Counted from the stretch's first letter, positions 1-26,371 are shown. The stretch: 33,096 bases of DNA from Stramenopiles sp. TOSAG23-6 (GCA_900128565.1 LT635956.1:1-33096); one strand, 5' to 3'. Notes: generated by a model not told the origin, from the letters alone. A program made the numbers and translations.

Positions 1-106
1 TATTTTGGAAAAATATTTCAAAAAAAAATCTAAAAAAAATTGTTAGGTACAAAATGTACTATAAAAAAAATTCGATTTTTTTGTTAAAAAAAAAAATAAA
101 ACATAC
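1..106 (-). other. REV1 intron 3, repeated intron family, truncated by the window edge just before its 3' end
   Basis: ATA T|GTATGTTTTATTTT donor right after GGHGI; core GTACATTTTGTACCTAAC; ends ...TGAAATATTTTTCCAAAATA at position 1, matching the 3' tails of other copies. Confidence 0.85.
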
Positions 107-2512
107 ATATGCCATGACCTCCTTTTTTTGACGGTTCATGTATTGTAAAAAAATATGTTTCAAGTTTGAAATTCGTTAGGTACAATTTTTTTTTTTTTTT
201 GTAAAAAAAATACATTTGATATTGAAGTGTATTTTGGAAAAATATTTCAAAAAAAAAAAAACTAAAATTTGTTAGGTACAAAATGTCGTACGAAAAATAA
301 ATTCGAAATTGAAAAAAAAATAAAACATGACAACATACAATAGGTTGTTCAACCTGTCGACGTTTTATTTTCACAATGAGTCGATTTCCACACATTTGGG
401 ATTCTTGGGCTCTCTTGCTAATCTCTTCTGACATTGCATAAATAAATTCTTTCCATTCAAGATGATCCTCTTCTATTAAATAATCTTCATTTTTTGGTCT
501 ATTTGGAATATGTATCGATTTTGTTTTGTTTTGAAGACTATCTTTTAAATGCAGTAATGATAATTCTAGTTTATATGAGCGTCGAAAACGAATTCCCCAA
601 TTACAAACAGCACTGATAGATCTTTTATTATTTCGTGTTTCATCCAGATTATTGGGACTTTCATTTTTTTTTTTATTTGGGCTAATGACAGTACCAAAAG
701 GTGATGCATCAGTTATAGAAGAAGTAGCTATGGACTTCATAGGAGATGTATGTATGGATTCAGGGTCAATTCCGCGACATAAACGCCAAAAATTAATACC
801 TCTTTTAGTACCAAATAGTTGTCGGAGATTTTCTTTTGTTTGTTTTTGTAATGAAACTATCGAATTTATATTATTTGACGCAAAAGCTCTCAACGTTTTA
901 CGGCCAATACCAGGCAAATTGCGTAAATTAAATTTTGCAACAAATTCTAATGCGGCTGTTTTATGTATTTTGGAAAAATATTTGAAAAAAAATTCGTTAG
1001 GTACAAAATTTCGTACGAAAAAAACATTCGAATTGAAAAAAAAATAAAACATACATACGCATCTTTTTCAAATGTAGAAATATGAGAGCTTTGAACTACT
1101 GTATTTGATTTAGTTTTTGATTTCGTCGGTGTACTCATCCATGCCCTATCTGCGTCATATGTTTTATTCATTGTTTTATATGTATATGTACAAGGTGCTA
1201 CAAACATCCCATTTGGTTTAGCTTTTATTAAAGCTAGTCGAGCAAGAATTTTAGAAGTACCAATACCAACGGATGCAGTACATCCAATTGCAATTTCTAT
1301 ATCTACACGTATTTGATTTGCAATTTCCTCCGCAGTTTTAGATTCTCCAACTTCAGTACTAATGACAGATGTATTATATGTACATTTCCAACTAGGAAGA
1401 AAAATTAATGCCTCGTCAATACTTTTCTGTATAAATCGGCCACCTAAAGATGAGGAATGCTCAGATAATATACTCATCACAGTTTGAGAAAAGTTTTTAA
1501 TCATTTGTGTGTTGTATGGAAGCACAACAAGATATTTACATTTCTCTGCAGCAGTTTTTACATACATGCCCGCACGAATTCCAAATTTTCGTGCTATATA
1601 ATTTGCACTAGATACTTCACTTGTACTGGTTGTTTTATTATGCAAAGTAGAATTTTTAATGCTACCTGCATGGGCAACGACAACTGCACAACTTCTGATA
1701 TTTTTTTGTTTCTTTTCTGCAATTTTCATTGCAACTGCAGCAAAGAAACAATCCATGTCAATGTGTAATACAATTTCCCCCATATAAACCATTGCTTTCA
1801 ACTCAGCATGTTTTTCACTACTTTGGTCATTTGTTCTCCAAGTACCAATGGTATTGAGGCGACTTTTCTTCCAAAATTGTTGAAGAAATATTTTATCCAT
1901 TCTGCGTCTATGACAACCAGTGACTCGTGATGCTCGTGATGTCTGGTATTGTCGAGCATTTGAGCTTTGCTTATTGTTAGATTTTATTGATGTTTCAGAT
2001 TGTACGGATAAATTACTCTTTCTAAATATTGAGCTTACTGACGGCTGCGTTGTATTTCTGACGGTTGGAATGAGGTGCATTTCCACATGCTCTAAAGTAC
2101 CTGAAGCAACACTATGCATTATCCAAGACGGGAGAACTACAGGACGAAGTTTCTGACGACTTGCACCACTTGCAGTTCTCATTTCCTCCAACTTGTTGCC
2201 AGGAAGAGTAGTAGCAATAATATGAGTTGTTCGAGAGGCTTTGTAAGTATCAAAATCTCCACCATGAATCATTACTGTTTTATGAAGAATTTGTGCTGAT
2301 GGCTCCGTGAAACCATCAACATATATACAAATACCTTTAAATAGTGTAGATTCAGATGTATCCGTTCGAAACCTCTCAAACTGTAGTTTCATTTTCTTTC
2401 GCTTTGTAGTCATATAAGTGTGCCCACAACCACCATGATGAAGCTTGTCTGGTAAATCATCTGGGTTCTTTCGCTTTTCCGTTGACAAGGTAATTGATAA
2501 GGGTGAACTCAT
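107..2512 (-). CDS. REV1: DNA repair protein REV1 (Y-family deoxycytidyl transferase), spliced and 3'-partial; inferred exons 2512-1055, 962-339, 137-107, continuing beyond the window start
   Basis: N-terminal BRCT-like segment (FKGICIYVDGFTEPS...THIIATTLP...VVLPSWI), SRL N-digit, HIDMDCFF and SIDEA catalytic motifs, ASVGIG..KILARLA..KAKPNG, HhH NLPGIG, RSISAVCNWGIRF and KGGHGIC, spread over ORFs 947..2512 and 84..1052. Confidence 0.93.
138..338 (-). other. REV1 intron 2 (201 nt, compound, two core motifs), inferred GT...AT ends
   Basis: Removing GTATGT...ACAATACAT joins KRRQVEQPI to EPSKKGGHGIC, matching the REV1 motif spacing; contains two TTGTACCTAAC cores. Confidence 0.85.
225..331 (-). 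mobile_element. Inner family copy apparently nested in REV1 intron 2, flanked by TT
   Basis: GTCATGTTTTATTTTTTTTTCAATTTCGAAT...TCGTACGACATTTTGTACCTAAC...TTCCAAAATACACTT closely resembles REV1 intron 1; removing it leaves a 94-nt family-like intron. Confidence 0.55.
963..1054 (-). other. REV1 intron 1 (92 nt), repeated family, inferred GT...AT ends
   Basis: Frame switches between ORFs 947..2512 and 84..1052; TAT|GTATGT...TTTCGTACGAAATTTTGTACCTAAC...CCAAAATACAT|AAA restores frame into ALEFVAKFNLRNLPGIG. Confidence 0.85.
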
Positions 2513-2691
2513 TCTTTTTAAAGTATTTCACTTAACGAAAGCATATATATATAAATAGATGCTCAGTTATCGATTAATATCAATGATATCAATTCACATT
2601 TCAAGAAACTGCATCGCAAGAAGAAGAATATTTTCTGTTTCTTCTTCCCTTTTGGAATTGGAACGCAGGTTCTTCTGCTCTTCTTTTACTG

Positions 2692-2703
2692 TGCCACGTG
2701 GCA
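2692..2703. promoter_or_regulatory. Palindromic G-box/E-box-like site TGCCACGTGGCA in the divergent REV1/ATP23 intergenic region
   Basis: Perfect 12-bp palindrome with a CACGTG core in an AT-rich intergenic region; function not shown. Confidence 0.35.
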
Positions 2704-2833
2704 TTTGATTTGATGGCCAACTTTTATTATCGACTTGCAAGCAGCAACCTTCTACAATAAAATATAGTAGCTAGTAGCTAATGGTAGATCAAGTGTGTGT
2801 CCGATAAAATTCGAAATGTTGTAGCATAAAAGT

Positions 2834-3589
2834 ATGGGTGGTAGTAGCAACCAGAATAATGAAAATACAGATAGTGGTCTAGGTGTTGCTGCGTGTGTAG
2901 AAGCTACAAAGAAAGCACTGAGTACAGGTCGTCTCAATGTTCTGGTACGAGAATTATCGAAGCGAATAAACTGCAAGTTCAAAATTTACGCTGAAAACTC
3001 CAACCATTCAAGTAAACTAAATGAAGATTCACCTGGTCAGTTATCATTTGTTGAAGCTGGTCAATTCAATTTTTCTAATAGCGAAAGTAGTAGTAGTAGT
3101 AGTATCAGTAGTCAAACTTCAGAACTTCCAATAATTGTTCGACAATGTGTCAAAGATGGTGTTGAGGGAAATGCCCGCGCTTTCTTTTCTGATCCGAAAT
3201 CTATTACACTCTGTGCAAATCGACTTCATTCAGAAAAGGATGTAACAGATGTTATGGTTCATGAGTTTGTTCATGCATACGACTTTTTGGTTCTCAAAAA
3301 AGACCTTACAGACTGTGAACAACTTGCCTGTAGTGAAATTAGGGCGAATCGAGATGGAGAGTGTTATTCTAAATATGCTGAACAGGATAATAAGGGGATG
3401 TATTTTGTACAAAAACTAATGAAGTATAAGGAGAGAACGTGTACACTAAACTCTGCAATTCGTGCGACGCAATCTTTCTTTCCAGAAAAAGCTGAAAAGT
3501 GTGTAAAAACAGTTTTTGAAGAATGCTTTCAAAATCGAATACCTTTTGCTAGTCGTGGGCTTAAAAGTACAAAAAATGAGGCCAAGTGA
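2834..3589 (+). CDS. ATP23: Mitochondrial inner membrane protease ATP23 (peptidase M76)
   Basis: ITLCANRL, HEFVHAYD (HExxH), CEQLACSEIRA and C-terminal CVKTVFEECF..RIPF; intronless. Confidence 0.9.
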   Translation: MGGSSNQNNENTDSGLGVAACVEATKKALSTGRLNVLVRELSKRINCKFKIYAENSNHSSKLNEDSPGQLSFVEAGQFNFSNSESSSSSSISSQTSELPIIVRQCVKDGVEGNARAFFSDPKSITLCANRLHSEKDVTDVMVHEFVHAYDFLVLKKDLTDCEQLACSEIRANRDGECYSKYAEQDNKGMYFVQKLMKYKERTCTLNSAIRATQSFFPEKAEKCVKTVFEECFQNRIPFASRGLKSTKNEAK

Positions 3590-3868
3590 TATACATACAG
3601 TAGTTAGTAAATGTTGTTTACTAGCTTGATGGTATTATTTATGGCTAATTTAAGTTATATATAAAAATATGTGTAGAAATGAATCCGAAATGAATCTCAA
3701 AAGAAATTGAAAATTGAAAATTTGAAGGGATTTCAAAGCGATTTCAAAATTTGAAACCGTCATCTTTTTTTTTGACCAGTACTTTTCTTATACCCACGTA
3801 AAGAAGGTAGTAGCATTAGGATCATTGCAATACAATTTCATATATATGATGCATACGTTTGAAAGAAA

Positions 3869-6800
3869 ATGACTCGCACATTTCGCTCAAATATATCTCA
3901 GTGGTCACATTCCAAAGTTGCAATAGAATCTAAACTACAGAGGCGGGCCGTACATGAGAGAGAGTATGCTTTGTCTCGCCTCTTATTTGAATCTAAAGTT
4001 TCTAAAGAAATTAAAAGACGCAAAATTGAAAATATGGCCATATATGCAGCAAAGGACGCCGCTATGGCTTCCAAAGTAGCATGCCATGCTGTTGAACATA
4101 CTTTTAATATCATGAAACGAATGAAGAAACGAGTTTCCAAAGCAAAGCGTCGTGCAAAACAACTTCAAAAAGAGCGAATGAAAATTATTCATAGTAAACT
4201 TAGTGAAACATCAGTTGTAGTGGGGGATTTAAATATAGTTGAAAGTACTATGGATACATCTAGCTTTGGTTCTATTATAATGCCAGAGAAATCAATAGGA
4301 TTATTCGATGGTAAAATGAAACAAGCTACTTCTGTGAAAAAAAATCCAAATGAAGCTCAGCAAAAAACAAATGAAAATGATTTTGTTGCTGAAATTGTTA
4401 CTGAAAATATAAATGCATCAAATGATACTGAAAATGATACTGAAAAAGCCACAAATAAAAACGTTTTTGTCGCTGAAATTGTATCTGAAAATATACAACC
4501 TGAGAATAAAGATAAAATAGTAGAAATTATCTCAGAATCTCTTCATTATGACGAAATATCCGAGAAAATACCTGAGAAAATAGAATCGCCAGTTATTATA
4601 CGAAAACAAAATAAACAAAATACACTCGAATCAAAATTAGCACATCGTGATAAAATGTGGGAAGAAGCAGCAACTCGCTCCAAACGCCGGATAAATCTGC
4701 TGCAACATCTTGAAAACAGTTGGTTAGAAACAGTTGAAGAAGCTGAAGCGGACTTTTTACCCCCTCCTTTACCGCCTAAATTATTGGATGTATGTAGCAT
4801 TGTAAATGCTCAGCAAAAAGAACGCATTTCTAATCGATTGCGGTCAGCGTGGAATAATGCAAAACAAAATGCGGAATTGACAGGTAATCCGATACCCCCA
4901 ATACCACATCAATTAGTTACAATCAACGAATCAAAACAGCAATTTAATAAAAAGAATGCGCTTTCTAATCCTAAACGCGTAAAGATGAAGAAAGCTGTGG
5001 GATTGAAAGTGGTCAATACAAGTAGGAAAAAGAAAGTTATTCCAGTGAATAAAAGACAGAAAAATAGACGTAAACGACGTAAAAAGAGAATTTCTAGAAA
5101 TGTACCACCAAAGTTACCAATGAAGCAAGTATTGTCTCGAATAAAAGCTGTTCAAAAATTACTTGTATGTCGTATTGGAGGCTGTGACAATGAGCCACAA
5201 TACATCAAATCAAAAAATCTTTGGTCAGAATATTGTGAACAACATATGTGTCTCATTACGGGATGCGCAAATAAATCATCTAGCTGGAGTGGTATGTGTG
5301 CCACGCACGATGCAATATCTGTTTCATTCGTAATTGATGAAGCTTTAGTGCAGGAAAAATCAATGGCTGAAAAGCGTGAGATTTTCCGATTAAAAAGGGA
5401 GACACGAAAAAGATTAGAAAAAAGAAAAAGAATACTAGACAAAAAACTAATTAAATTTCGAGAAAATAGACTTCGAAAATTTGGATATACTGAGGAATAT
5501 ATTCAAACCTTGAACCAAAACTTTGAAAACATGCTCATCGCATTGAAAGCTGAAGAAGCAAAACGTAAAAAGAAGCGTAAAGTCAAGAGTAAATTGCGTA
5601 GAACAAAATCTATAAAGAGAAAGTTAAAGAGGCAATCGAAAAAAATATTTCATAAAAGGGCTCCAAAACAAAAGTCACTTTTAAAGAATACTTTGGAGAA
5701 AGATGTTAAATTACCTCCAATTCTAGAAAAGGCAAAGTGTGCTCGACGGATACAATCTTTACGCCGTGGATTCACTTCGCGTCGTTCACTTGCTGCTTCT
5801 CGTGCAGCGGCAGTATCACAAAGGGCGTCAATAGATGCCAGAATGAAAGCAGCATCAGCTTTACCTGCATGGAGCAAAATCGATGCAGAGATGCATCAGA
5901 GAGTTCTTTCCCGTGCGGGAACAAGTCGAATGCAAAAGGCGTTGTCTGAGGCTTTTAAAGTGGAATCATCATCTGGCGATGATAGTGATGATTCAGAGAG
6001 TGATTCGGAGATTTCAGCAAATGATGTGGAAGAAGTTCTTGATGAAAATGGTGAAGTTGTAAAAATTCAAATGCCAAAGATGACACAAAGGGATGCTGAA
6101 ACAGATGCAGAATATTTAGAACGAATGACTCGTGAATATGCCTTAGCAAAAGCTGCAACAATGCGCAAAAGGCTTGAAGCAAAACAATTTAAACCTGCAC
6201 AAAAATGTCAACGTATGGTCCGTGGATGGATGGCAAGAGAAAAGTATAAGATACTTCTGAAAGAAGTCAAAGCAGCACGCCAAATACAAAGAATATGGCG
6301 AGGTCTAAAAGGTAGGCGTATATGGGAAATGCTTTGTAGTCCAGTTTGGATGGATATTCTCACTCCTGAGGGATTAATCGATAAAACATGCAGTCGTGTT
6401 CGTTGTACTGTTGTATCCATCTATCATATTGCTGGTAAAAAATATGCAAGTGTTGAAGTTATGAAGACTACTAAAGGTAAAGAATGTGGTCTTATCGGTG
6501 TAAAGGATGATGTACTTGTGGAAAATTTATGGGGTAATGAAGTACGCAATAAACCTGTACCCTGGGCTAAAATAGTTGATAAACTCCGACCTTCTAGTGT
6601 AGTGAATAATACAACAAAAAAAAGATATAAAGCTATTAAAATTCTGAGAAAGTCTCTAGCCCAAGTTCATTCTTGTTTAGACAGTATACGTGATGATCTC
6701 AGAAAATCATTCGATGTAGAAGATGTACAGGAGTCCACTGCTATCACAAATTCTGCTCTGGTTCGTTTGGAGGAAGCAGTAAATATTATTGTACCACCTC

Positions 6801-7279
6801 TACCTCATGGGACTAAACCAAATGAATCAAATCAAGAGTTGTTTCAAACACGGGGACATTTCAAAACAGCAAAGGAAAAGCTGATGCGATCTTTACAACG
6901 TGTAGTGGTAGTGTGTGCGTTTTCATTATGAATTTCAAATTTTTTTTTTTTTTCGTACGAAATTTTGTAACTAACAAATTTCGAATTTAATTTTTTTTAC
7001 AATACATGTAGCGAGGAAAGCCTTTTAAAAGTTGGTCACTTTGGAACGATTCAAATGGGACCGAGACGACAATCCAGTGCTGCTCAACTTGAAGTTATAG
7101 AAACTGAGATAGTTGAGGCAGTTGCAGAAATTGAACAATTGGGTAATTGGGTTTTAGACTATGATACATATGGTCAGTCATATTACGTGAATACGAAGAC
7201 TGGGGCAACTGAATGGCAGAAGCCACGTTTGACGAATATGAAAAACCTCGCTAAAATAGGCTTTTTCAGTAATTGGTAA
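3869..7279 (+). CDS. Large basic coiled-coil protein with IQ motifs, a Cys/His zinc-finger-like pair and a C-terminal WW domain (~1105 aa, one intron)
   Basis: IQ motifs RRIQSLRRGFTSRR, KCQRMVRGWMAR, RQIQRIWRGLKGRR; CRIGGC...CEQH and CLITGC...CATH; the WW domain WVLDYDTYGQSYYVNTKTGATEWQKP joins in frame after removing the intron at ~6915-7007. Confidence 0.8.
6915..7007 (+). other. Intron of the repeated family (93 nt); GTGCGT...ATACAT preferred, GT-AG alternatives (6913 or 6919 to 7011) also in frame
   Basis: Contains the in-frame TGA ending ORF 3869..6931, a T-tract, TTTCGTACGAAATTTTGTAACTAAC and TTTTACAATACAT. Confidence 0.8.
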
Positions 7280-7336
7280 TAAATAAATGTGTAGGAAATA
7301 AGTGAAAATTATGATATTATGAAATTTAGTATTTAT

Positions 7337-8294
7337 TTAATTGAGATCTGTAGGGAGAATTGCACTAGGTTTGTGATAAGTACAGTTATCTTTAACTTTA
7401 CTGTCTTCGACTTGAACTGTAACATTATTCAAATCACTACCTTCTGTTTTTGATTTAACAGTATGCAAAACAATACGTTCTGTTTTTAACGCACTTGACG
7501 AGGTAGTACTAGGAGCTACTCCATTTTTTACATTTTCTGTTCTATTTAGTCTTTTCTGCTTTGCGGCTTCTTTGCGCGCTCTAAAAGCTGCCGCCTGACG
7601 AGCTAAAAGCCAATCATAGGTACCAACACGCGCCCAGACTACCAAATATAAATGAAAACCAAGTAAAGATAGAAACAAAGTGTTGTCAAAAAATATTTCA
7701 AAAAACAAATCGTTAGGTACAAAATTTTGTACGAAAAAAAAATGAAATTCATAAAGAAAACGTACAAGCTGTAACAATTCCAGCTATTAAAGCTTGAATT
7801 GCAAAAACTATAGCAAAAATTATTGACTCGTCCTTGAAACGCCAATCTAAAAATATTAATATATTGACTAGAGTTTGTGCGCCAAATTGAATCGTTCCAA
7901 ATGTAATGAGGGCAAAGAAAATTGGGTAGTTACGCTTCCCAATACAAGTGTTAAGCCACATACAATGATGATCCAATCCTTGAACATGTTTGTAGCACAA
8001 AGTACAATAATGTTTCTGACTTTGTGTTTTACTCATACACACACATGGTATACCACCTGGTTCAGCAGGGTCAATAGTTTCGACTAGATACCAAAGAATA
8101 AGAAAAGTGATAACTAACACTGAGTAAATTGTTAGACACGTAATCAACTCAGTTTTATATTTATCATCCCAAAGGGCAATGACAGTACCGATATAAAATG
8201 CGATAGTACATAAGGACCATAAAACCCACGTAGACTTTTGCTCTCGCGAATATGGTTTGCTAAATCCATTTATACGGCAAGCATTATTGACCAT
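7337..8294 (-). CDS. DHHC palmitoyltransferase (zDHHC), inferred exons 8294-7766 and 7677-7337 (~289 aa)
   Basis: RINGFSKPY N-terminus, HYCTLC...DHHCMWLNTCIGKRNY, four hydrophobic segments; TM4 LLGFHLYL and GTYDW lie in the second frame. Confidence 0.92.
7678..7765 (-). other. DHHC intron (~88 nt), repeated family, non-AG 3' end (inferred ...ACAACACTT)
   Basis: GCT T|GTACGT donor, GTACAAAATTTTGTACCTAAC core, and no AG between the core and the conserved LLGFHLYL codons. The exact 3' end is uncertain by whole codons. Confidence 0.8.
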
Positions 8295-8606
8295 ACCTAT
8301 TTAAATAGAAAAGAAGGACAAAGAACAGCAATCACCTCTTCAAGCAAAAGGTAGTATTTTGATTGTAACTATGCCACAAGTTTTATTTCTGCCAGGATAC
8401 TTTTATTCGAAGTGGCAACTTAAATCAATAGTTTTATCTATTAAAATCCTCAATATCAAATATTTTCTACCCCTGGCTCGGCTGATACTTATTGAGTGCT
8501 TCAATAATATCAACCAATGCTGCTGAAACAACAACACGACGTCCCCGGAGAATGAATGACATGCGTGAAATATTTTTTCAATTAAAACTGATTGATGGCC
8601 AAGGAG

Positions 8607-8625
8607 CCCTAAGCCCTAACCCTAA
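8607..8625. repeat. Short interstitial telomere-like repeat (CCCTAA x3)
   Basis: CCCTAA G CCCTAA CCCTAA in a divergent intergenic region. Confidence 0.55.
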
Positions 8626-8821
8626 CGCTATAATGCAATAGAAGTAAATTAGAAATTCAAAATGTGATGCTCGCTCCATTCATACTCATGAAGAAGAAGA
8701 TCTCCAAAATACTGTATCTACACAGTGAGGAGAAGAAGATAAACGCTTGAATAGATAACGATTGTCATTTACTAGAAGTGCTACATTACATATTTCTTAC
8801 GTTTTCGATAATACTACAGGA

Positions 8822-9454
8822 ATGAAGATAATGTTTCGTACTCTCATAAACTGTTTGCTTCTTCTAACACCAGCTATGAGTGTTAACTATACAAAGGATG
8901 ATGCTTGTACCATAATGAAAGATTTAAAATCTTTCGGGGTCGTAAAAGTTTGCGATGATCTTGGATTTTCTGCTTGCAAGGCAATTATCAAACATAATAA
9001 TAATGAAGCATTCTCGTGTGATCTTGTATGTAAAGAAGTTAGTCTAACTTGTTCAGCGGCGTGGAAAGTTGAAGCTACATGGGCAACTTATGAAGGAACT
9101 AAAAAGGACTGTCCAAAGGACGGCGACGGGGAAGTTACACTTTTAGCAACTTCTAAATCATGTGAAGTCTCGAATTCTGATAATAAGTATTGCGAATGCC
9201 AAAATATTAGAGATAAGGACATTTCGGTGTACGATTATCTGCTCATTATCGTTTTCATCACTTTCCCTGTGATCACGCTTATCTGTTTCACTCTTTCGTG
9301 TTGGACCTTAAGGACAGGAAAATTAGCTGAAATTGAGGCTGAAGAAGATGCACATGTTGCGAGACTGGTTAAATCAGCTGATGATTCCGGTCTTAAGAAG
9401 GATATTGAACCAAATGAAGTTAGATCTGCCGAAATGACGACGCTAGTCAAATAA
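8822..9454 (+). CDS. Cys-rich type I single-pass membrane protein of unknown function
   Basis: First ATG gives a signal-peptide-like MKIMFRTLINCLLLLTPAMS, followed by a Cys-rich ectodomain, TM YLLIIVFITFPVITLICFTLSCW and an acidic tail. Confidence 0.75.
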   Translation: MKIMFRTLINCLLLLTPAMSVNYTKDDACTIMKDLKSFGVVKVCDDLGFSACKAIIKHNNNEAFSCDLVCKEVSLTCSAAWKVEATWATYEGTKKDCPKDGDGEVTLLATSKSCEVSNSDNKYCECQNIRDKDISVYDYLLIIVFITFPVITLICFTLSCWTLRTGKLAEIEAEEDAHVARLVKSADDSGLKKDIEPNEVRSAEMTTLVK

Positions 9455-9770
9455 TAAAGTTGAAAAAAAAAAAATTAAACAATTCTTTAGACCTGATTAT
9501 AAAGATTTTTGTTTTAGAAGTTTTTAAAATGAGTAAATAAATAGGCTATGTCGATGTAATGAATTCTAATATATATATATATGAAAAATAATTTGTATTT
9601 GTTGTACACAATCCTAATTTTGAATTTTTCGAATGTATGAATTCAATTAAGATGTGATAGATAAATTAAAATTTAATACATATGATCAAAAATAACTATA
9701 TTCTTACTTTTATTTAAAACTTCAACAATGGTAAAGATGTCATTTTATGACTAACACAACACAACAGGTT

Positions 9771-10568
9771 TTATTTTCGTCTATAAATGTGCACTGAGGA
9801 TTGTCCCCAAGACTGGTGATATTTTTGTTTCAAAATCAATTCAAAACAATCTGATAGTAGAGGTTTCGTGTTTGTAATGAATATTGCACCTGACTGCAAG
9901 AGCTTTCCGCAGACTGAAATTTTCTCCATTAAATTTCCATCGAAGCATGTACTATTAGCAAAAATTATATCACCAATGGACCAATTAAAATATTTCCGTG
10001 GTTTTATCTCTGAATTGGAAGGACTCTTCACAGAAGAAATATCGGCCTGATAAAATTCTATTGTGGTTGGAATTTTTTTTCCCTTTACTTCACTAATATA
10101 CCTTTGGTGGCAACTCTCTGCAAGCTTATGTAAAGTTGGCATTAGCTCTATCCCAATACAACGATTAAATTGTATCCATGGTTGAAGTGCCGCCGAATAT
10201 ACAGTATTTCCGGCCCCGGAACCCAAGTCAATAAACGTCAATTCGGAAGACATTGGTTTACAGTGCTCCATAATATATCGCAAAATTCGACAAATACTAG
10301 GAAACTCCATTACGCCATACGTAAATTTTGGTACGTATCGTTCTCCTCGCTCTACACGATCGGTTATAGAAGCCGCTTTTGCGTCTTTGTAGGGAATAAC
10401 TATTTTTGAAAATGATATTTCAGCCGCAGTCTCTTCTGGTGTAGGTCCTTCGCCTCCTAACCAAATGTCCACAGTTGTAGAATCCGAGTCACTGTCAAAG
10501 TCGCCGAGTGTGTGTAATTTTGTGCTTAAACTATGCATTAGGCATCCAATACTGGAGTCACCACTCAT
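9771..10568 (-). CDS. DOT1-like class I SAM-dependent methyltransferase
   Basis: TYGVM, FIDLGSGAG (motif I), CIGIEL, FYQADI, DIIFANSTCF and terminal SWG..SVHIYRR. Confidence 0.8.
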   Translation of the reverse strand: MSGDSSIGCLMHSLSTKLHTLGDFDSDSDSTTVDIWLGGEGPTPEETAAEISFSKIVIPYKDAKAASITDRVERGERYVPKFTYGVMEFPSICRILRYIMEHCKPMSSELTFIDLGSGAGNTVYSAALQPWIQFNRCIGIELMPTLHKLAESCHQRYISEVKGKKIPTTIEFYQADISSVKSPSNSEIKPRKYFNWSIGDIIFANSTCFDGNLMEKISVCGKLLQSGAIFITNTKPLLSDCFELILKQKYHQSWGQSSVHIYRRK

Positions 10569-10745
10569 ATGAAAATAACTCTGATTGATTTAGATTACTT
10601 TAAAAAATAACCGGAAAGAAGGGCAACTTGCACCGAAATAACGGAAATAACGTCTTTTCCGTTATCTCCTATATTGTATTATTACCTCTAGCTACACCAG
10701 GTCCTACGTACGTACTAAGGTACTACAGAATCCTGAGCTAGTACC

Positions 10746-12243
10746 ATGGATTTTACTGCAAGTAACATGAACTTCGATGAAGAATTGCAAGCTAAAAGTC
10801 CGATAGGGAAGAGGACAACTATCTTTCAGAGAGCCCGGAACGTAGTAGCGCACAAAACTATACGTATAGCAACAGAGCAACCCGATTCAATGTATACAGA
10901 AGCCTCTGATAACTTCTTCCGTCACGATCAGGAATTACAGGACCTTCATCGAAATGTACAATCCCTTGTAAGCGACGCAACGCGCTTTGCATCATCTTTA
11001 ACAAGGGTAATGGCTTCGCTTGTAACTTTAGGTGAAGATTCAACTATTGTTGGCGATAATGAGATGAGCCGACGAGAACACGCTAAAGTCTGTATGAAAA
11101 TAGCGACGCTAGTAGAACAAAGTTTTGTTCAGCCCTTGGAAACACAGGTATTAAATACACTTGATATAGCATGCTGCAAGAATAGAGAGACAAAAGAAAA
11201 AATGAAGGACCGTCTAAAAATAAAACGCGAATACGACGTAAGTTTATTTTTTTTTCATAGAAAAATTTGTATCAAACAAATTTCGAATTTGTTGAAACGA
11301 TCACTTTTCCAGTTTTCACTCATTTCTAAAAACCATTTTCTAATTTCACACTTCACAGCATTATGTCGAAAAATGTAACAGGTTAAATGTAGAATGTATA
11401 TCGCCATCGTCTTCGTTCAAAAACAAACAACAAACTGAGCAGAAACTGAATCGAAACCAGACTGTATGTTTTCTTTTTTTTTTCTTACAAAAAAATCGAA
11501 TTTTTTTTTCGTACGAAATTTTGTACCTAACAAAAAAAACATTTAAAAAACAATTCACAGTACATAAACTTTCCTTTGCAACTGAAAATTTACGAGAATC
11601 CACTGCTGAGTTGATGGGAGTTTTCAGTGATATGCGAAAACAACAGGCGCCAAAAGGTGCTAAGAAGGAAGCTGTGTGCATTTGGCAAGCTATTTCTGAT
11701 TTATTTTCAAAAGGCCATTCAATTTTCAATAATTCTATCCAATCCATCGGAACAAATAAAAATAATGAAACAGAAGAAATCAGAAAAGTTGAAGATGATT
11801 ACAACAATATTTTTGGAAGTGATGATACAAAAACGAATAGTTTAATTGAAAGTAATATCCTTGATTATAGTTCACATGAAAATGTCGGAAATACATCATC
11901 TCATAGTGAAAATGAATCTTTATATGATCTATATAGTGAAGCACTATCTCCACGTACTGAAAATGAATCTTTATATGATATGTATAGTGAAGCGCTGAAA
12001 TCAAGTCCAAAATTTAGTCATAATCCTACAATGTTGAATGAAACTAAAACCGAAAATGTAGACAATTTTAGTAATCCATTTGCGAACAACCCTAGTACTA
12101 TGCTGAATGAAACTGATAAAACAGAAAATGTAGACAATTTTAGTAATCCATTTGCGAACAACCCTAGTACTATGCTGAATGATAAAACAGAAAATGTAGA
12201 CAATTTTGGTAATCCATTTGCGAACAACCCATTTGAAAAATGA
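10746..12243 (+). CDS. BAR-domain-like protein with C-terminal NPF repeats; inferred exons 10746-11237, 11359-11463, 11566-12243 (~424 aa)
   Basis: Helical N-terminus; spliced product reads KDRLKIKREYD|HYVEK...KLNRNQT|KLSFATENL, as in BAR helices; the tail carries repeated NPF motifs. Confidence 0.7.
11238..11358 (+). other. Canonical GT-AG intron (121 nt) containing a decayed family core
   Basis: GAC|GTAAGT...TTCTAAT...TTCACAG|CAT, phase 0; its 5' half resembles the family core. Confidence 0.85.
11464..11565 (+). other. Intron of the repeated family (102 nt), inferred GT...AT ends
   Basis: ACT|GTATGT...TTTCGTACGAAATTTTGTACCTAAC...CACAGTACAT|AAA; the nearby CAG is out of phase with the GTATGT donor. 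Confidence 0.8.
11908..12234 (+). repeat. Coding tandem repeats: 2x ENESLYD(L/M)YSEAL and 3x ~66-72 bp TMLN..KTENVDNF(S/G)NPFANNP
   Basis: Near-identical nucleotide repeats visible at 11908/11959 and from ~12022 to 12234. Confidence 0.9.
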
Positions 12244-12463
12244 TAATATGGATACCGCGCGAATGCAAAACAATTTATTTACTTAAATTGTATTATTCAA
12301 TGAATAAAATTAATATAATTCGCACAAACCTGTTTTTTGTACCTAAATGTAACGGCGTTTCAATGTTCCATCATTTTGTATATCTTCTTGCAAAAGACTA
12401 CTACTACAATCTTTTTGTTGATTAAGGGACAAGTACACGTAAAGGTGGATTTTCTCTCTCACT

Positions 12464-15400
12464 ATGGGAGACTTATCACCTTTATCGCAACAGTTTCGTC
12501 TAAAGGTTCCACCACCTTCGCCAAGAAGTGGACGGAAATCACCGACACGTACTTTTAAACTCCCAGTACGAGAACCTGGCTCTCCAAGTGCAACACCAAA
12601 AGTCACATCACGAAAAACTTTCAAACGAGTAAAGCCAAGTAATTTTAATCATCCAAATCGTAATAATCTATCCAATCCATCGGTGCCATCATCTAGAGAA
12701 TCACGATATAGTCATTTTAATTCAAAGGAATATATTGCACCAAGCAATCGTATTGCTAGTAACTACACACCTACTGCTGCTGGGCTCTCGTTATCGATCA
12801 TTTCAGATGCACTCAGTGGTCGACCAGGCTTTTCGTCTCCTTCGCGTAAGGAACGATCAAAGCGTAGAATGAATTCGTCAAACAGTCGAACGGTGACGTT
12901 TTCGGCTAGCGATTTTGGGTCTGGGTCGCAAGGACGACGACACGATGACACCGCACGTAGTAACCCAAATTACCTTGACTTAAAGGTTAATCTTGCTCCT
13001 GGTGAAAATATCATTCTTCCTTCTCCTAAACGTGGAAATGAGAGATCAATGCAAGATTTGTTTGAGTGGAGTCCAATTTCAGAAGAAGGTGATGAAGTCA
13101 AGGCTAGCGATTTCAATATAACTAAAAAGACTCGAGGAATAACAGCATTACAAAGATTTAATTCTCAATATCTTCAGCGAAACGTGAATCGTTATTGGCG
13201 TGTACTTCTTAAACAACCTAATGATAAGCTTCCTAAACTTCGGGATACGTGGTTAAAGCATGCACTTATTCGTATGGGTATTATTGCTCAACCTGAACAT
13301 GAAAGTGTGATTGAAAACCTTTTGGTTGAAATCAAAGCTCTTTACTTCTGCTCCTTGCAACAAATTAATTTGGATTATGAAATCAAAAACCCTGATGTTT
13401 CAAATAGACTGAGTATTGACTATGACGCACTTTTATTCTCTCGAAATTGGATGGCTAGTCCAACATCTCAACAAATTATTCAAAATCCACACATGACATT
13501 TGATTGGAAAGTTCTTCGAAATACATTTATTAATAGCAAACGGATTGCCAAAAAGCGCTTACTCATCCAGACATTTTTTGATGTGCTGGAACAAACTATG
13601 CAAGCATTACAAAATATTTGGTATATTCCAAAACAGGTGAAAGACTCTCCACTCAAACATTCCAAGGCATTGGTAGATACAACATTTGTTGATGTTGCTA
13701 CTAAAGACTTTTATAAAATGCTTCCTCTGGAACCAGATCAGTTTTACGATTATGTAGTCAAACAGATAAATACGCATCGATCTCACCTCCGATCAGCTTG
13801 GCTTGACAAAATATTCACAATACTTAGTGCCGTTTCGAAGCGTATGATATCTGAACAATCATCGCCGCAAATGGAAACAACAGTTTCTAAAACAAAAACA
13901 AAAAAATCAAATGGGTCGTCAAAGGGTGTTCATCGCAAAACTACTACCACAAAAAGACACGAACGCAGTGATGAAGATGTATTGTTATCAGCCGCATCTA
14001 CAGTTATGAGCAAACAACTACGATCGTGCTCTGAAAACTCATTAAATGCACTTCTTGGTTGGATGGAATGGATGACTAAAGATAAGCCCAATACACACGC
14101 AGGTTTTCATATCAAGTTAAGTGTCACTCCCCATGTAAAAGAATTGTCAAAAGATTGGGACCAAAACAGCGCTGATAAAAGTGTAGCTATTGGAGACTCT
14201 GATGAAGAACCTGAAGACGACAAGGGCGACTCTACGTCTCAAGATAATTCACCGTTCACTATATCGCCTTCTACTGACGAAATGATTGATATACTAACAA
14301 AATGTGTTGAAAAGATCATGAATGCAGATCAAAACTTTCCATCGGCAAAGCAGCTTGTTTTTCCTGATAAAGAATCTCGTAATCGAACATTGAGTGCATG
14401 TCAAATGAGCAATGAATCTCCAATTGTTCTGCTCGTAAAGGAACGAATTGCTGAAATAGTGCAGAACAATTACTCTGCGCCTCTTGCTCTTCTCGCATCT
14501 TTTGAAAAATTCAAGTCTCTCTTTGATGGTACAGAAGAAGAAACTATCGGCAACACTATAGAACAGATTGAGGAGTTACAGGAATCTGATGAACCGGGAG
14601 CAAGCATTACTGTTCTTGAACTTGTTCGAAAGGAACTTGTTCGCTTGTTTGAAGTAGCGGAAGATGCGTGTAATTTTACTGAAGATACTGTGTTTTATCC
14701 AATGTTTCAGGTGGATGTTGTGGAGTTTAAAAAGGCATTAGAATCTCGAGCACTGTTACTTGCAGATAAGCTGATGTCTGTGGTAGTTCTCGAAAACCGA
14801 AGACAAATGAAATCACTCTGTAGTATCTACGAAAATATGGCCAATGTTTTGATGACAACACCCCAAGACACCACTGCTCTCCGTAAACTTCAAGACTATT
14901 GGATAAAATGCGACGAAATGTTTCTCAAAATGAAGAAAACAGCCAACGAAGAAGTACATAGTCGCGTGCTATTTGTTTTAGAATTGGGCAAATGTTATGA
15001 AGATCAGAATAATGCCCATTTATACGGTGAGGACATAATAATGTATGGGAAACTTTTGGAATGGCCACGGCACATTATGGATTTCCATGAAAGGTCGCGT
15101 ACAATGCAACAATCTAAGAAAGGAGAATTAGAGTCAGTTTTGATGATGCGAAAGAGTACATTTGAAGATGAATTGAAATCATGTTCACTCACATTGTCTA
15201 CGTTGAAAGCAGAGAGTGCCTATACACAAGCCATTGTAAAGAAAAATCTGGCCAAGATTAAGTCTCTAACTAAAGCTCTTGAAAATGCAGAAATGGAAGC
15301 TACTCGAATTAACGAGCAAGAAGTGGAAGTCGGTCTTGATGAACCTACTGGCTACATTGATGATATCAAAACAATGCAAGTTGAAATAAAACCTCTGGGA

Positions 15401-18400
15401 GAGATGTGGCAAAAAATCGAAGAATATTTCACGTACATGCAACAATGGACAAAAACACCGTTATATCAGTTAGATGCAGAGACAATTGAAAATGATGCTG
15501 ATACATTAAAGCGCAATTTTGGAAAGCTTAAGAAAACTTTCACAAAACTTGACTTGTTGGAGGCACTCAAAATTTCTGAGAAAGTTGCAATAAATGTTGA
15601 CACTTTCATGGATGATATGGTGCCACTTCTAATGCTAGTCTGTACACCAGGGTTGCGTCTACGTCACTGGAATAAAATTGCGGAAATAACAAGTCTGGAC
15701 ATTGAATGGCATCAAGAAGCTTGTCTTTCTGAAGTGACTGAGTTAGGTCTTCAAAATTATACAGCATCAATTGAAGAAACGTGTATTACAGGTGTCAAGG
15801 AGTATTCCCTTGAAAAGGCTATGGATAAAATGGAAGAAGAATGGCAAGGAATGACGTTCGAATTGACTGCTTACAGAGACACTGGAACACATATTATCTC
15901 GTCAATTGACGATATCCAACAAATTCTTGATGATCAAATTGTAAAGACCCAAGCAATGCGAGGATCAAGATATATAACACCATTTTTAGATCGTGCAAAT
16001 AAGTGGGAATTTATTCTCAAGAATCTTCAAGACATTATTGATAATTGGCTCAAAGTACAAGGTGTATGGTTGTATCTGGAACCTATTTTTTCATCTGATG
16101 ATATCAATAAACAAATGCCAAAGGAGGGTGAAATGTTTCGAGGAGTAGATAATGTATGGCGCGACTCAATGAAGAAAACATCTGACGAACCCGAAGTACT
16201 CAAAGTTGCTCAACGTAAAGGTTTGGTGAAAAGTTTGTTGAATGCGATTGATGTATTGGAACAGATTCAAAGGGGCTTGAATCAATATTTGGAAACAAAG
16301 AGACTTTTCTTTCCAAGATTTTTCTTTCTTTCTAACGATGAGTTACTTGAAATTCTTGCTGAGACAAAAGACCCTCTTCGTGTGCAACCACATCTTAAAA
16401 AGTGTTTTGAAGGAATCAATAATCTGGTTTTTGAAGATAATCTTGATATTGTAGCAATGAAATCTCGCGAAAAAGAACAAATTGTATTCGATTATGATAA
16501 GATTAATCATAAATTGGTGAATCCAAATGATGCCGCTGGTTGTGTTGAGGTGTGGCTCTTGCAAGTCGAAGAAACGATGCGTCGTTCAGTCGCATTACAG
16601 ACTAACTTGGCTATGATAGATGTAGAAGAACGAGAACGCACAGAATGGCTCACAATATGGCCTGGACAAGTTTGTATTAGTGTATCTCAGAAAAAGTGGA
16701 CCACAGAAGTAGAACAGGCTTTCCTCGATGATAATCTTTCAAGTGTATCACAGACTCTTCAGGATGGTTTAGTCAGTATTGTCAAACTAGTACGCGGGAA
16801 ACTTCCAAAACTAGCTCGAAAAACAATTTCTGCTATTTGTGTAATTGACGTACATAATCGTGATGTTGTGAAAAACATGTGCTCTTTAGGTATTGATTCA
16901 AAAACGGATTTTGATTGGATGGCACAGCTTCGATACTATTATTTCCCTGACTTTGGTTCTGAATTGACTGGAAAGCCAGGAACTATTCGATGTAGAATGA
17001 TATTATCAGAAATTAGCTATGCAAATGAATATTTAGGTAATTCAATGCGTCTTGTGATTACTCCATTAACAGATCGGTGTTACCGCACACTCATTGGTGC
17101 TGTCGCATTGGATCTTGGTGGAGCCCCCGAGGGACCTGCAGGAACAGGGAAAACAGAAACTGTAAAAGATCTTGCAAAAGCTCTGGCTATGCAATGTGTT
17201 GTTTTCAATTGTTCAGATGGTTTAGATTTTAAAGCAATGGCTAAATTTTTCAAAGGTCTGGCTTCATCTGGTGCATGGGCTTGTTTTGATGAGTTCAATC
17301 GAATTGTACTAGAAGTATTGTCTGTTGTTGCACAGCAGATTCTTACGATCCAACGAGCAAAGATCGAAAAGAAAGAAAAATTTCTATTTGAAGGTACAGT
17401 TATTTCTTTGAGAACAACCGCAAATGCGTTTATTACTATGAATCCTGGGTATGCTGGAAGAGCAGAGTTGCCTGATAACCTTAAAGCTCTGTTTCGCACT
17501 GTGGCAATGATGGTTCCAGATTATGCTATGATTGCAGAAATTATCTTATATTCGATGGGTTATTTATTAGGAAAATCACTTTCAGTTAAAATTGTACAAT
17601 GTTATAAATTATGTTCTGAACAGCTTTCAGCGCAGAGACATTATGATTATGGAATGCGGGCTGTAATGGCTGTACTCCGAGCGTCTAATAATTTGAAGCG
17701 AGCCGATATGGACAGAGGAAGTGGCGATACAGATGAAGATGTTTTATGTCTAAGAGCGATTATGGATGTAAATTACGCAAAATTTTTATCACATGATTTA
17801 CCTCTATTCAATGGAATTGTAGGTGATTTGTTTCCTGGAGTTAAACTACCAGAGATTGATCGAACAAACCAACTAAGAGCAATGAGGAAGGCTTGTAAAG
17901 TACTTAAACTACAGCCTACTGCGCCATTTCTTACAAAGACAGTTCAAATATATGAAATGATGGTGGTTCGTCATGGTTTCATGATTGTAGGCCTTCCATT
18001 TGGTGCAAAGACTTCGGCATGGAAAGTATTACAGCTACAAATGGGAATTATGAATGAATGGTATCCTGAGGATACTAGATGGACTCAAGTCCATGTCGTA
18101 GTAATCAATCCAAAAGCGCTAACTATGGGACAGCTATATGGACAATTCGATCCAGTTTCTCATGAATGGACTGATGGTGTGATTCCTATATACTACAGAA
18201 ATATGGCAAATAATAAAATAGGAAAGGCTCCAGACCGAAAATGGATGTTATTTGACGGACCTGTAGATGCTATTTGGATTGAAAATATGAACACTGTGTT
18301 GGACGATAATAAGAAACTTTGTCTAATGTCCGGTGAAATTGTTGCTATGAGTGATGTCATGAGCATGATGTTTGAACCAATGGACTTAGATGTCGCATCA

Positions 18401-21400
18401 CCTGCCACTGTTAGTCGAGTTGGAATGATTTATATGGAACCTCGTGATTTAGGATGGAGACCTTTACTAGATTCTTGGCTGCAAGGTTTAGTGGATGATT
18501 CTACGTATGATGAACTTGTTGATAAGAAAAGACAAATGGATGAAGAAGGTGAAGAAGACGATCGACCATTCTTGATTACATCTAAACAAGCATGTACTAT
18601 TGAGCTTATGTTTGAATGGTTGGTTGATCCTTTATTAGAATTCCTTCGAAAAGAAGTAAAAGAACAAAGTAAAACACAGGATCATTTCATGGTACAGTCT
18701 ATTATACGCATCGTTGAATCATTGTTAGAACAAACACTAATTGGTGCTCATGACATTGATAAAATGATGCGCGAAGCTGATAAAAAACAAAAAAAGAAAA
18801 AGAAGAAGAAAGGAGATGACGATGAATATGACCCCGATATACGGAATCGTATTACAGAGGAACTTATTGAGTCGATATTTTTAGTTGCGTGTACATGGTC
18901 TGTATGCTGCTCAACTGATCATATTGGGCGTGCGAAGTGGGATATATACTTTCGAAAATTACTCCAAGGTTCTGATTTTATTAAAGAAGAACACAAATCA
19001 GTTTATAGAGGTCTAAACTTAAGAGGTTGGGTTGCGCCTCGATTTGACCCAGAAGGTAAAAGAAATACTAGAAAGCTACAAAATCCAATTCCAGATGGAT
19101 CAATATACGACTATATGTACGTCCCACCTGAAAGCGCAAAGAAAAAGGGGAAATGGGTGACCTGGTTAAGTCAATTGAAAGATTTAAACGTCGCGAAAGA
19201 CGCTGACTTTTCATCTATTTGTGTACCAACGGTTTACACTGCATCTTTTGAGTGGATATTAAAGTTATTAGTTACACATAAGATCCCAGTTCTTGCATGT
19301 GGTCCAACAGGGACTGGAAAAAGTGTGTACATCCAGAATGTTTTGAATAAGCAAATGCCCAGAGATATAAATGGTTTTGGGTATGTAAATATTCAACTGG
19401 GGTTATCAGCAAAGACGACGGTCAATATGGTACAATCTATAATTGATGGGAAATTAGACAAAAGAAGGAAAGGTGTATACGGTCCGGCCGCAGGGAAAAA
19501 TTGTGTCATATTTGTTGATGATTTGAATATGCCTGAAATCGAGGAATACGGCGCCCAGCCGCCGCTTGAGTTACTGCGTCAATTAATAGGATCTGGAGGT
19601 TGGTTTGATATGAAAGACAAGACCTGGCGGAGTCAAGTAGATACACAAATAATTGCTGCAATGGGTCCACCGGGCGGTGGTCGCAATACTGTATCTCCGC
19701 GTACATTACGACATTTTAATCTAGTTTGCTTTGTTGAGTTTTCAGATGATACTTTACTCCGAATTTTTAGCTTTATCGCAAAATGGCATTTTGATTGCAA
19801 CAACTTTGATGCATCTATCAAAAAGAAGTCCAATAATTTGGTGAATGCGACTATTGATATGTATAACACTGCAAAAGATAATTTATTGCCGACACCGGCA
19901 AAATCGCATTACATATTTAATCTTAGAGATGTAGCTCGTGTAATTCAAGGTTTGCTCTTAGTTAAGCCTTACACAGATATTAACGTAGATGTTGTTACAA
20001 GACTTTGGTTGCATGAATGTCAGCGAGTATTTGCAGATCGCCTTGTAAACACCGAAGACGGTGATTGGTTTACTCAGAATGCTGGTACTCTAATATCTCG
20101 ACATTTTGGAACAACTTTAGACAAGGTTTGTGCTTCAATTGCCAATGAAGAGAAACAAGTAGGCCGTCTTGAGTTGCGAAGACTATATTTTGGAGATTAT
20201 ATGATTCCTGGTGCAGCAAGTAAGAGTTACAAAGAAGTTATTGAATTAGAGAAAATGAGTAAAGTATTTAATCACTATCTTGAGGAATTCAATTCAATGA
20301 CTAGAAAAAAAATGGACTTGGTGCTCTTTCAGTTTGCTATCGAACATTGTAGTCGGATAATTAGAATGATGAATATACCAGGAGGTAATATGTTACTTGT
20401 TGGTGTTGGAGGTTCTGGGAGACAATCTTTAACAAGACTTGCCGCATCGATTGCTGATTATGAATGCTTCCAAATTGAAATTAGTAAAAATTATACTACG
20501 GCTGAATGGCGAGAGGACATGAAAAAGGTTCTGATTGGTGCAGGTACCGGTCAACGCCCCTTCGTTTTCTTATTTTCAGATACACAAATAGTTGAAGAAT
20601 CATTCATTGAAGATATCAATAATATTCTAAATTCTGGAGAAATCCCAAATCTCTTTTTAGCTGATGAAAAAATGGAAATTGTCGATCGCATTCGTGGAAT
20701 AGCAAAAGCCACGTTTGGACGAAAGGCAGAATCAATGAATGCTGGTGATATGTACAACTTCTTTGTGAAAAGACTAAGAGATAGATTACACGTCATGCTT
20801 GCGTTTTCACCTATTGGTGATGCTTTTAGAGAGCGATTAAGAAAATTTCCTTCTTTGGTTAATTGTTGTACAATTGATTGGTTTATGGAATGGCCTTCTG
20901 ATGCATTAGTTGCAACAGCGGAAAGATTTTTGAACGACATCAAAGTAGACAGTGAAGAAATACGTGCGTCGATTGTTAACCTTTGTCAATTTTTTCATGA
21001 CTTTACTTTTGATTTGAGTAAAAAGTATTTACAGAAGCGTGGACGTCATAATTATGTGACCCCAACATCTTATCTTGAACTTATCAAAGCGTATAAAATA
21101 TCGCTATCGGAAAAACAAATTGAAGTTCGCGCCGCACGGGATAGATATACAAATGGTGTGCAGAAAATTGAATTCGCCGGAGAGGCTGTTAGTAAAATGC
21201 AAGATGAGTTAATAGCATTACAACCAGTTTTAAAACAAGCACAAATTGATACAGATAAACTCATGGTTGAGATCCAGGAAGCCCTTCCAGGTGTCGAAAA
21301 AATTAAAGCAAGTGTATCTAAAGAAGCTGCAGCGGCTCAAGTTGAGGCAGATAAATGTGCAGTGATGAAGAAGAGTTGTGAAGATGATCTTGCTGAAGCC

Positions 21401-25866: not shown

Positions 25867-26371
25867 AATTCTTAATTTAGCATCCCATTCACTAGAGATG
25901 ACAAATCTCTACTTACCTATGTTGAATACTATTTGAGAAAAGTAAATACAAAATTAATTAAATCATTTTACAAACTTGCTGACAATAAATTGAAAAAAGA
26001 AATGAACCTACTAGATACCAGATTGGAGGCTATTAGGAATGTACAAGATGAATAATGACAAATGAATGAAAGAAAATAGATAAATTTATTTTAAAATTAA
26101 TTATCTGGATTTGCTTTTTTCTTTTTCAATTTTTTTATGCAGGATCTCCATTTGCTTTTGCATCTGCTGTAATGATTTTAATAATGGATTTCCTCCTTCT
26201 TCGGAAAAAGAGCCACCCAAGACCCTCTGCTTCATTTAATGGTTTTAAATGATTAAAAACATACAATGGATCTTTTCCATATAAATATCATTTTTACTAT
26301 TTCATCTAATTCAGTTCTAGGTAAACATTCTACTTCAAATAGACATGCCCCTAGATCATGGGGATATGTGT

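Follow-up and report, generated by a model that had tools for sequence, protein, structure and literature searches.

A REV1-like gene lies on the minus strand (84-2512) at the beginning of a 33,096-nt stretch of Stramenopiles sp. TOSAG23-6 (GCA_900128565.1 LT635956.1:1-33096), which will be called the window. The gene raises the question of what a 201-nt insert (138..338(-)) within its conserved little-finger region represents. The insert begins as many introns do, with GTATGT at 338-333, and ends at 146-138 with ACAATACAT, that is, in AT; an earlier interpretation made from the sequence alone (the sequence-only reading) had taken it for a GT...AT intron. The insert belongs to an introner-like family whose members carry canonical 5' and branch signals and are probably spliced with a non-AG 3' end (GT..AT, GT..TT, or TG..CA if the cut is slid). 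Only the precise removal of such elements restores the conserved protein in two genes, REV1 and a DHHC palmitoyltransferase gene. That the removal takes place in RNA and is carried out by the spliceosome, as well as the choice of the cut register (GT..AT or TG..CA), we infer from the sequence.

The insert lies exactly between CCTATT and GAACCG, as the sequence-only reading had stated. On the minus strand, its upstream border reads ...AAA CGT CGA CAG GTT GAA CAA CCT ATT/GTATGTTGTCATG... from 338 downward, so that GTATGTTGTC follows CAA CCT ATT, and the downstream region reads TTTTTTTACAATACAT/GAA CCG TCA AAA AAA GGA GGT CAT GGC ATA T/GTATGT, with borders at 138/137 and then at 107/106 (slashes mark the borders between exons and elements). 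The conceptual protein is therefore KIKRRQVEQPI, 67 additional residues and EPSKKGGHGI. The site was compared with 16 REV1 homologues, picked by length out of 68 non-self matches, all of which (16/16) read ..K[IVL]xxRxxxAP[IV]E[TP]xK[FK]xGHGxC.. in this region. The human REV1 chain 3gqc_A, which reads KIMVRKPGAPVETAKFGGHGICDN, confirms the little-finger motif and the gap-free human alignment that the sequence-only reading had given. That reading had also proposed a multiple alignment of REV1 little-finger domains as a check: none of the 16 homologues has an insertion at the site, and two of them show a one-residue gap. In the window, the contiguous stretch ..AP[IV]E[TP]xKFxGHGxC is present only when 338..138 is removed.

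A profile built from the 16 homologues across the little-finger region scores the precise removal of 338..138 at 60.8 bits and the retained insert at 44.1 bits, 16.7 bits below. The usable AG acceptors give a first exon base at 261, 121 or 118 only, and their combination with four GT donors (338, 334, 331 and 326) makes up 12 GT-AG pairings, which score between 41.9 and 47.8 bits. Each of these pairings is out of frame, contains a TGA or loses EPSKKGG, which bears out the objection of the sequence-only reading to AG acceptors and adds frameshifts to the two defects that it had named. When the borders were displaced in frame over a 5x7 grid (35 shifts), the exact ends were the best, with 60.8 bits against 58.6 for the next. 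On these sequence comparisons, the gap-free REV1 motif is restored only by the exact removal of 338..138.

The insert is in frame and free of stops: the stop-to-stop open reading frame 84..1067(-) spans it, and its other two frames contain 2 and 3 stops. Stop-free sequences were obtained in just 68 of 20000 shuffles of the insert, a figure that overstates its oddity, since five of six family members have no stop in the frame that opens with the intron's first base. The open frame reported by the sequence-only reading thus stands but is not special to this insert, and it is no evidence of coding. The read-through peptide, 67 residues rich in F, Y and K that had been called implausible, has no relative among 5.8 billion proteins except the genome's own gene model P0001. 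What had been missed is the introner-like, tandem nature of the insert. Intron B, as the insert will be called, consists of a repeated element in two tandem copies, B1 (338-229(-)) and B2 (228-138(-)). B1 is of full length but ends in ..AATACAC; B2 is shortened in its 5' part and has the standard 3' end. The branch-like word TTGTACCTAAC occurs in both copies, at 271..281(-) in B1, where the sole internal AG of the insert follows 9 nt later, and at 175..185(-) in B2, where 38 nt without any AG separate the likely branch A from the 3' end. The removal of B1 and B2 as two separate introns according to the family rule was considered and rejected: an exon of 13 nt and a shifted frame would result, and B therefore has to leave as a single unit.

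The second element without a usable AG, intron E (7765..7678(-)), is found in the gene for the DHHC palmitoyltransferase (Pfam, 8.5e-15). Its 88 nt are devoid of AG and disrupt the reading frame, so that its retention cannot yield the conserved C-terminal part of the protein. The closest homologue, P0072, reads ..GVIAA LMLSLMGFHLYLILWARVGTYDW.., and the window protein reads ..GIVTA / LFLSLLGFHLYLVVWARVGTYDW.. only when 7765..7678 is removed. Against P0072, the exact ends score 611, displacements by -3 and +3 nt 601 and 596, the first downstream AG 531 and retention 451; P0074 ends before the junction and was left out of the scoring. The conserved FHLYL segment is lost in every GT-AG solution at E. 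Searches of Pfam and PDB with just the short DHHC tail were uninformative.

Introns B and E belong to a repeat of ~90-100 nt whose consensus is T/GTATGTTTTATTTTTTTTT..TTTCGTACGAAATTTTGTACCTAAC..(U-rich)..ACAATACAT/, or in short form T/GTAYGTTTT...TTGTACCTAAC...ACAAYACWT/. Eight copies are found in four genes within 12 kb of the window, all of them (8/8) in sense orientation relative to their host gene. Besides B1 and B2, the REV1 gene contains copy A (1054-963(-)) and copy a (106..1(-)), which is cut by the window start. Copy D (6915-7007(+), 93 nt, GTGCGT...ACAATACAT) has an in-frame stop and interrupts an IQ/WW-domain gene, and copy E reads GTACGT...GACAACACTT. Copies G (11464-11565(+), 102 nt, GTATGT...CACAGTACAT, in frame and stop-free like B) and F (11238-11358(+), 121 nt, GTAAGT...CACAG, a degenerate copy in its 5' half) are both found in one unknown gene. 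When the copies are aligned, similarity starts at T/GT and stops at ACAT/ (ACTT/ in E), and the flanks are unrelated. The word TTGTACCTAAC occurs nine times at up to one mismatch, against 0.38 expected. The 5' sites of the family are GTATGT, GTGCGT, GTACGT and GTAAGT, the branch word TA[A/C]CTAAC lies 33-38 nt from the element end, and the 3' ends read ACAAYAC(A/T)T, with ACAT in B and ACTT in E. As expected of introners, similar copies are many and occur, each as an intron, in unrelated genes. Three further gene models from elsewhere in the genome (P0040, P0046 and P0060) end by reading through an element, in CMFYFF..FVRNFVPN..KYFSKIH, which is the element in another frame.

Several other features of the element were recorded. 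A perfect 12-nt palindrome, TTTCGTACGAAA, is located just 5' of the branch word in most copies (e.g. 1007-1018(-) and 11507-11518(+)), and the TTCGAA palindrome is also frequent in the core. The loose ends of contigs from RNA runs (see below) fall at the edges of this palindrome core, at places 985, 11500/11501, 7742 and 6998, which makes the core the best-conserved part of the element genome-wide; it may be a protein binding site or a transposition signal. Three of the five measured family introns, G (102 nt) among them, have a length divisible by three, and copies that would do no harm if retained may be favoured. A 22-letter core pattern had a single chance match in metagenome_contigs, in a bacterial membrane-protein gene, and none in genome_contigs or viral_contigs; a search of the window with Rfam returned no family above threshold. 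The genome is intron-poor, and the majority of the introns seen in the window belong to this one repeat family.

The domains of the REV1 gene are all present: the upstream frame encodes BRCT (Pfam, 7.5e-07) and the impB/IMS core (IMS, 8e-30), and frame 84..1067(-) encodes the HhH thumb of the Y family (IMS_HHH_1, 3.3e-12); the top solved-structure matches are the human and yeast REV1 chains, and the 26-residue tail of the REV1 frame, compared by itself with PDB, gave nothing useful. A first exon encoding the BRCT domain and the catalytic core (1055..2512(-)) is followed by intron A (963..1054(-), 92 nt, GTATGT...AAAATACAT), which shifts the frame, by an exon encoding the thumb and most of the little finger up to ...KIKRRQVEQPI (339..962(-)), by intron B (138..338(-)) and by a 31-nt micro-exon (107..137(-)) between two family introns, the second of which (copy a, 1..106(-)) begins T/GTATGTTTTATT. 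The micro-exon encodes EPSKKGGHGI and the first base of the next codon. The junction peptide proposed by the sequence-only reading therefore holds as far as EPSKKGGHGI; its final C came from a TGT that overlaps the GT of the next intron, and under the T/GTATGT rule the Cys codon would be split, with its last two bases outside the window. In the palm-thumb interval, an open A-rich stretch of ~46 codons (CTYTYKTMNK...STFEKDAY, 1062-1193(-)) is absent from most homologues; the annotation removes it together with element A, via GTACAT..CAG. This stretch could be a loop peculiar to the lineage or belong to a longer intron.

The exact cut can be placed in more than one register. Each upstream exon and each element end in T, and P0040, P0046 and P0060 read Cys-Met-Phe at the element entry, which implies a T before GTATG. 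Consequently, GT..AT and TG..CA give the same mRNA in A, B, D and G, as does TA..TG in B, and four of the five members read TG...CA when slid by one base; the equivalent registers of E are GT..TT, TG..CT, TT..AC and CT..CA. No register is GT-AG, GC-AG or general AT-AC. Thus, of the proposed GT...AT intron, the exact removal is upheld by the profile and by the sister intron E, but the GT..AT cut is not unique. The direct repeat at the borders measures 1-3 nt and always includes the T, and an inverted repeat (T)GTAT/ATAC(A) of ~5 bp is imperfect in D and E. A 2-bp target duplication around TGTAT...ATACA, which fits A, D and E, was rejected, as it gives the empty A site a stop and a frameshift.

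The signals of intron B were compared with those of known classes. U2-type introns of the yeast type read GTATGT...TACTAAC...YAG. B has the GTRNGT-like 5' site (GTATGT at 338-333) and the CTAAC/CTRAY branch word before a pyrimidine tract (281-271 and 185-175), and the family resembles the yeast type in GTATGT, CTAAC and a distance of 33-38 nt from branch to end; unlike it, the 3' end is CAT or CTT instead of YAG, and in both B and E the interval from the last branch word to the conserved exon is free of AG. U12-type introns have a 5' RTATCCTT and a branch word TCCTTAAC ~10-26 nt from the 3' end. The family shares with U12-type AT-AC introns the occurrence of non-GT-AG termini in normal genes, and A can slide to AT...AC; however, the 5' end reads GTATGTTG rather than RTATCCTT, the branch word is too far from the 3' end (38 nt in B), and B, D and G cannot be slid to AT..AC. 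The internal eliminated sequences of ciliates have TA...TA borders and are excised from DNA in the somatic nucleus; no register of A, D, E or G gives TA..TA, and the long open reading frames of the window are open under the standard code.

The scenario that we favor runs as follows. The 201 nt would be an intron of the REV1-like gene made of two tandem introner-like copies, in which the major spliceosome would recognise the canonical 5' site T/GTATGT (338) and a CTAAC branch. The distal branch site, with its A at 176, would be used, and the second step would take place at a non-AG site, CAU or CUU, 33-38 nt past the branch. Excision up to ACAT/ (138) would then join ...QPI to EPSKKGGHGI....

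The behaviour of the remaining members leaves room for AG-dependent splicing. Both A (92 nt), with its frameshift, and D (93 nt), with its stop, have to leave the mRNA, A either by itself or within a larger intron. For A, a GTTTTA..CAG reading and the longer GT-AG intron of the annotation are also possible, the latter bringing the loop length nearer to that of the homologues. For D, a GT-AG reading from 6913 or 6919 to the AG at 7010-7011 is also in frame, and the internal CAG of G keeps the frame with no donor but the weak GTTTTC. Since 2-4 donors in different phases are available, A and D would almost always have some AG solution that stays in frame. A strict rule, in which the donor GTTTTM is paired with the first AG that follows the branch, preserves the frame of A, D and G and fails to do so in B and E; it was rejected as a general rule, and three in-frame results out of five are no different from chance. 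AG use under that rule is possible at A, D and G. By frame logic, F is a canonical GTAAGT..CACAG intron, so AG-dependent splicing also exists in this genome.

A number of observations weigh against splicing with a non-AG 3' end. A, D and G each allow an in-frame GT-AG intron (second GT, GTTTTM; first AG after the branch), so that it is B and E that carry the AG-less rule. That all five precise removals are in frame (5/5) is weak evidence, because the insertion of an element into an open frame gives in-frame removal whatever the splicing; the weight falls on B and E because conserved residues abut the element ends there. At E, two more distant DHHC proteins do not favor the exact junction: P0073 scores it 349 against 355 at +9, and P0070 382 against 383 at -3, although both place the AG solution and retention lowest. 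In minimum-energy folds, the ends (U)GUAU/AUAC(A) pair over 7 bp in B and 5 bp in G (<=5-8 bp in the others); these helices are short, in differing registers, without compensating changes and not significant (z-scores of +0.46, +0.78, -2.35, -1.08 and -0.91). Finally, the length of insert B is a multiple of three without stops, so its retention would not truncate REV1, and contigs from RNA gave no joint at 339/137 among the 15 of 31 joints listed for two runs.

These contigs come from two seawater metatranscriptome runs (word shares 0.16 and 0.14) and were mapped on window positions 1-12000. They number 1354 and 1361 in the two runs and lie mostly on family copies, which, together with the three further gene models that end in the element, indicates that the family is numerous. 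Contigs on exons are 155-408 nt long, nearly identical to the window and end short of the junctions. Among the same listed joints, none is at 7766/7677, 6914/7008 or 11463/11566; those listed connect different repeat copies and resemble other loci of the family. No spliced REV1 or DHHC protein fragments were present in the protein collections searched.

Several scenarios other than splicing at a non-AG site may be considered. One is that the element is an insertion, possibly a recent one, that is not removed: REV1 would then carry a 67-residue loop in its little finger or be becoming a pseudogene, and the DHHC gene would be broken. We regard this as unlikely, though it deserves the most attention of the alternatives. 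The stop-free, threefold length of insert B agrees with it, as do the absence of spliced RNA among the listed joints and the gene model P0001, which keeps B, terminates within the following intron and omits ~46 codons around A; moreover, REV1 is dispensable in yeast. On the other hand, retention costs 16.7 bits in the profile and adds a peptide without relatives, the open frame comes with the element, being shared by five of six members, and the exons on either side, in both REV1 and DHHC, are undamaged, with conservation that reaches the element ends. The sense orientation of all eight copies would also be expected if splicing signals matter.

Another possibility is a cryptic GT-AG intron, in which a weak donor, GTTGTC (334) or GTCATG (331), would be joined to the AG at 120-119, replacing EPSKKGG with V or VC and forming a Cys codon at the joint. 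Both pairings maintain the frame, also downstream, and retain HGIC. Their scores, however, are 44.1 and 44.6 bits where precise removal has 60.8; they also skip a perfect GTATGT lying 4-7 nt upstream, make a coincidence of the in-frame match of GAA..GGT to E-P-S-K-K-G-G and have no counterpart in intron E that keeps FHLYL; this explanation is improbable. Just as hard to sustain, or slightly harder, is a precise removal without the spliceosome, either by excision of a TG...CA element from DNA or by an RNA route guided by (T)GTAT/ATAC(A). The TG...CA reading of four of the five members after a one-base slide and the pairing of the ends of B and G in folds would fit such a process. The strong 5' site and branch word kept in every copy, always in sense, point instead to the spliceosome, the helices have the defects given above, and element sequence is abundant in the contigs of the RNA libraries, though possibly through DNA carry-over. 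That an assembly or amplification artefact put repeat sequence into the gene is barely credible: the element is highly repeated and 569 and 553 contigs of the two runs fit two places of the stretch, but the codons on the two sides of the insert are exactly those that adjoin in homologues and the same architecture recurs in four genes.

If the elements are spliced at a non-AG site, as we favor, their closest parallels are other families of repeated introns. In the parasitic dinoflagellate Amoebophrya, non-canonical introners are repeated in unrelated genes, with inverted repeats of 8-20 nt, direct repeats of 3-5 nt and no preferred border dinucleotides (PMC7789003). The window family resembles them in being a repeated non-GT-AG family in unrelated genes on which gene finders fail, with short direct repeats at the borders that let the cut slide. 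It differs from them by its canonical 5' end GTAYGT, its yeast-like branch word, its short end helices, with an inverted repeat of ~5 bp and direct repeats of 1-3 nt, and an aberration confined to the 3' end (AT/TT). In the tunicate Fritillaria borealis, non-canonical introns derived from MITEs have AG-AC and AG-AT as prevalent pairs (review PMC11282704), and repeated introns with non-canonical borders are also described in PMC13326754, where loss or divergence of 3'-site factors is reported for tunicates. These are likewise transposon-like repeated introns, processed despite non-canonical ends and with AT among the common 3' ends, but the 5' end of the Fritillaria introns is non-canonical as well, and the lineage is animal, not stramenopile. 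Canonical introners (Micromonas, Aureococcus and many others) use GY-AG sites that are borne by the element or come from target duplication (PMC9860276). The window family shares with them its multiple copies of ~100-200 nt, which are whole introns in sense orientation, AT-richer than exons and sometimes accompanied by the gain or loss of a few codons; it departs from them in that B and E have no usable AG. A literature search that did not extend to supplements found no account of non-canonical introns for MAST-3 or Incisomonas; in the accessible part of PMC5778133, "intron" occurs twice, and "splice" and "canonical" are absent.

What would be new with respect to known introners is that the canonical 5' site and branch word are kept and the deviation concerns only the 3' end. 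Whether the organism routinely splices proliferating introners that end in CAU/CUU, choosing an AG-less 3' site at ACAAYACWU ~35 nt past the branch, is in our judgement evenly balanced. If so, the organism would join the tunicate and the parasitic dinoflagellate as a third independent lineage whose splicing is systematically non-canonical, and would be the cleanest of the three, since only the 3' site deviates. Splicing of this kind would mean that the choice of the 3' site can do without an AG when the rest is canonical, that a natural system isolates the problem of second-step recognition, and that a mobile element with two of the three splice signals still creates introns. The elements also explain the truncated or junk-peptide models P0001, P0071, which stops inside E (7749-8300(-)), P0040, P0046 and P0060, and suggest that gene finders restricted to GT-AG introns undercount the genes of such single-cell assemblies.

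The rest of the window contains a complete dynein heavy chain in one uninterrupted frame of 4346 codons (12443-25483(+)) with 14 Pfam dynein/AAA families. A peptidase M76 (ATP23-like) gene (2825-3589(+)) and a DOT1-like histone methyltransferase gene (9771-10589(-)) apparently consist of single exons. In-frame tandem coding repeats were found at three places: 66-nt units at the end of the gene holding introns F and G (12045-12248(+)), 33-nt units (30161-31055(+)) in a coiled-coil-like frame of 1068 codons, and 78-nt units near the window end (32662-33096(+)). Amid short broken frames at 25.5-28.5 kb, the diverged direct repeats 26359-26650 and 27096-27239, which are 88-94% identical, may be decayed paralogues.

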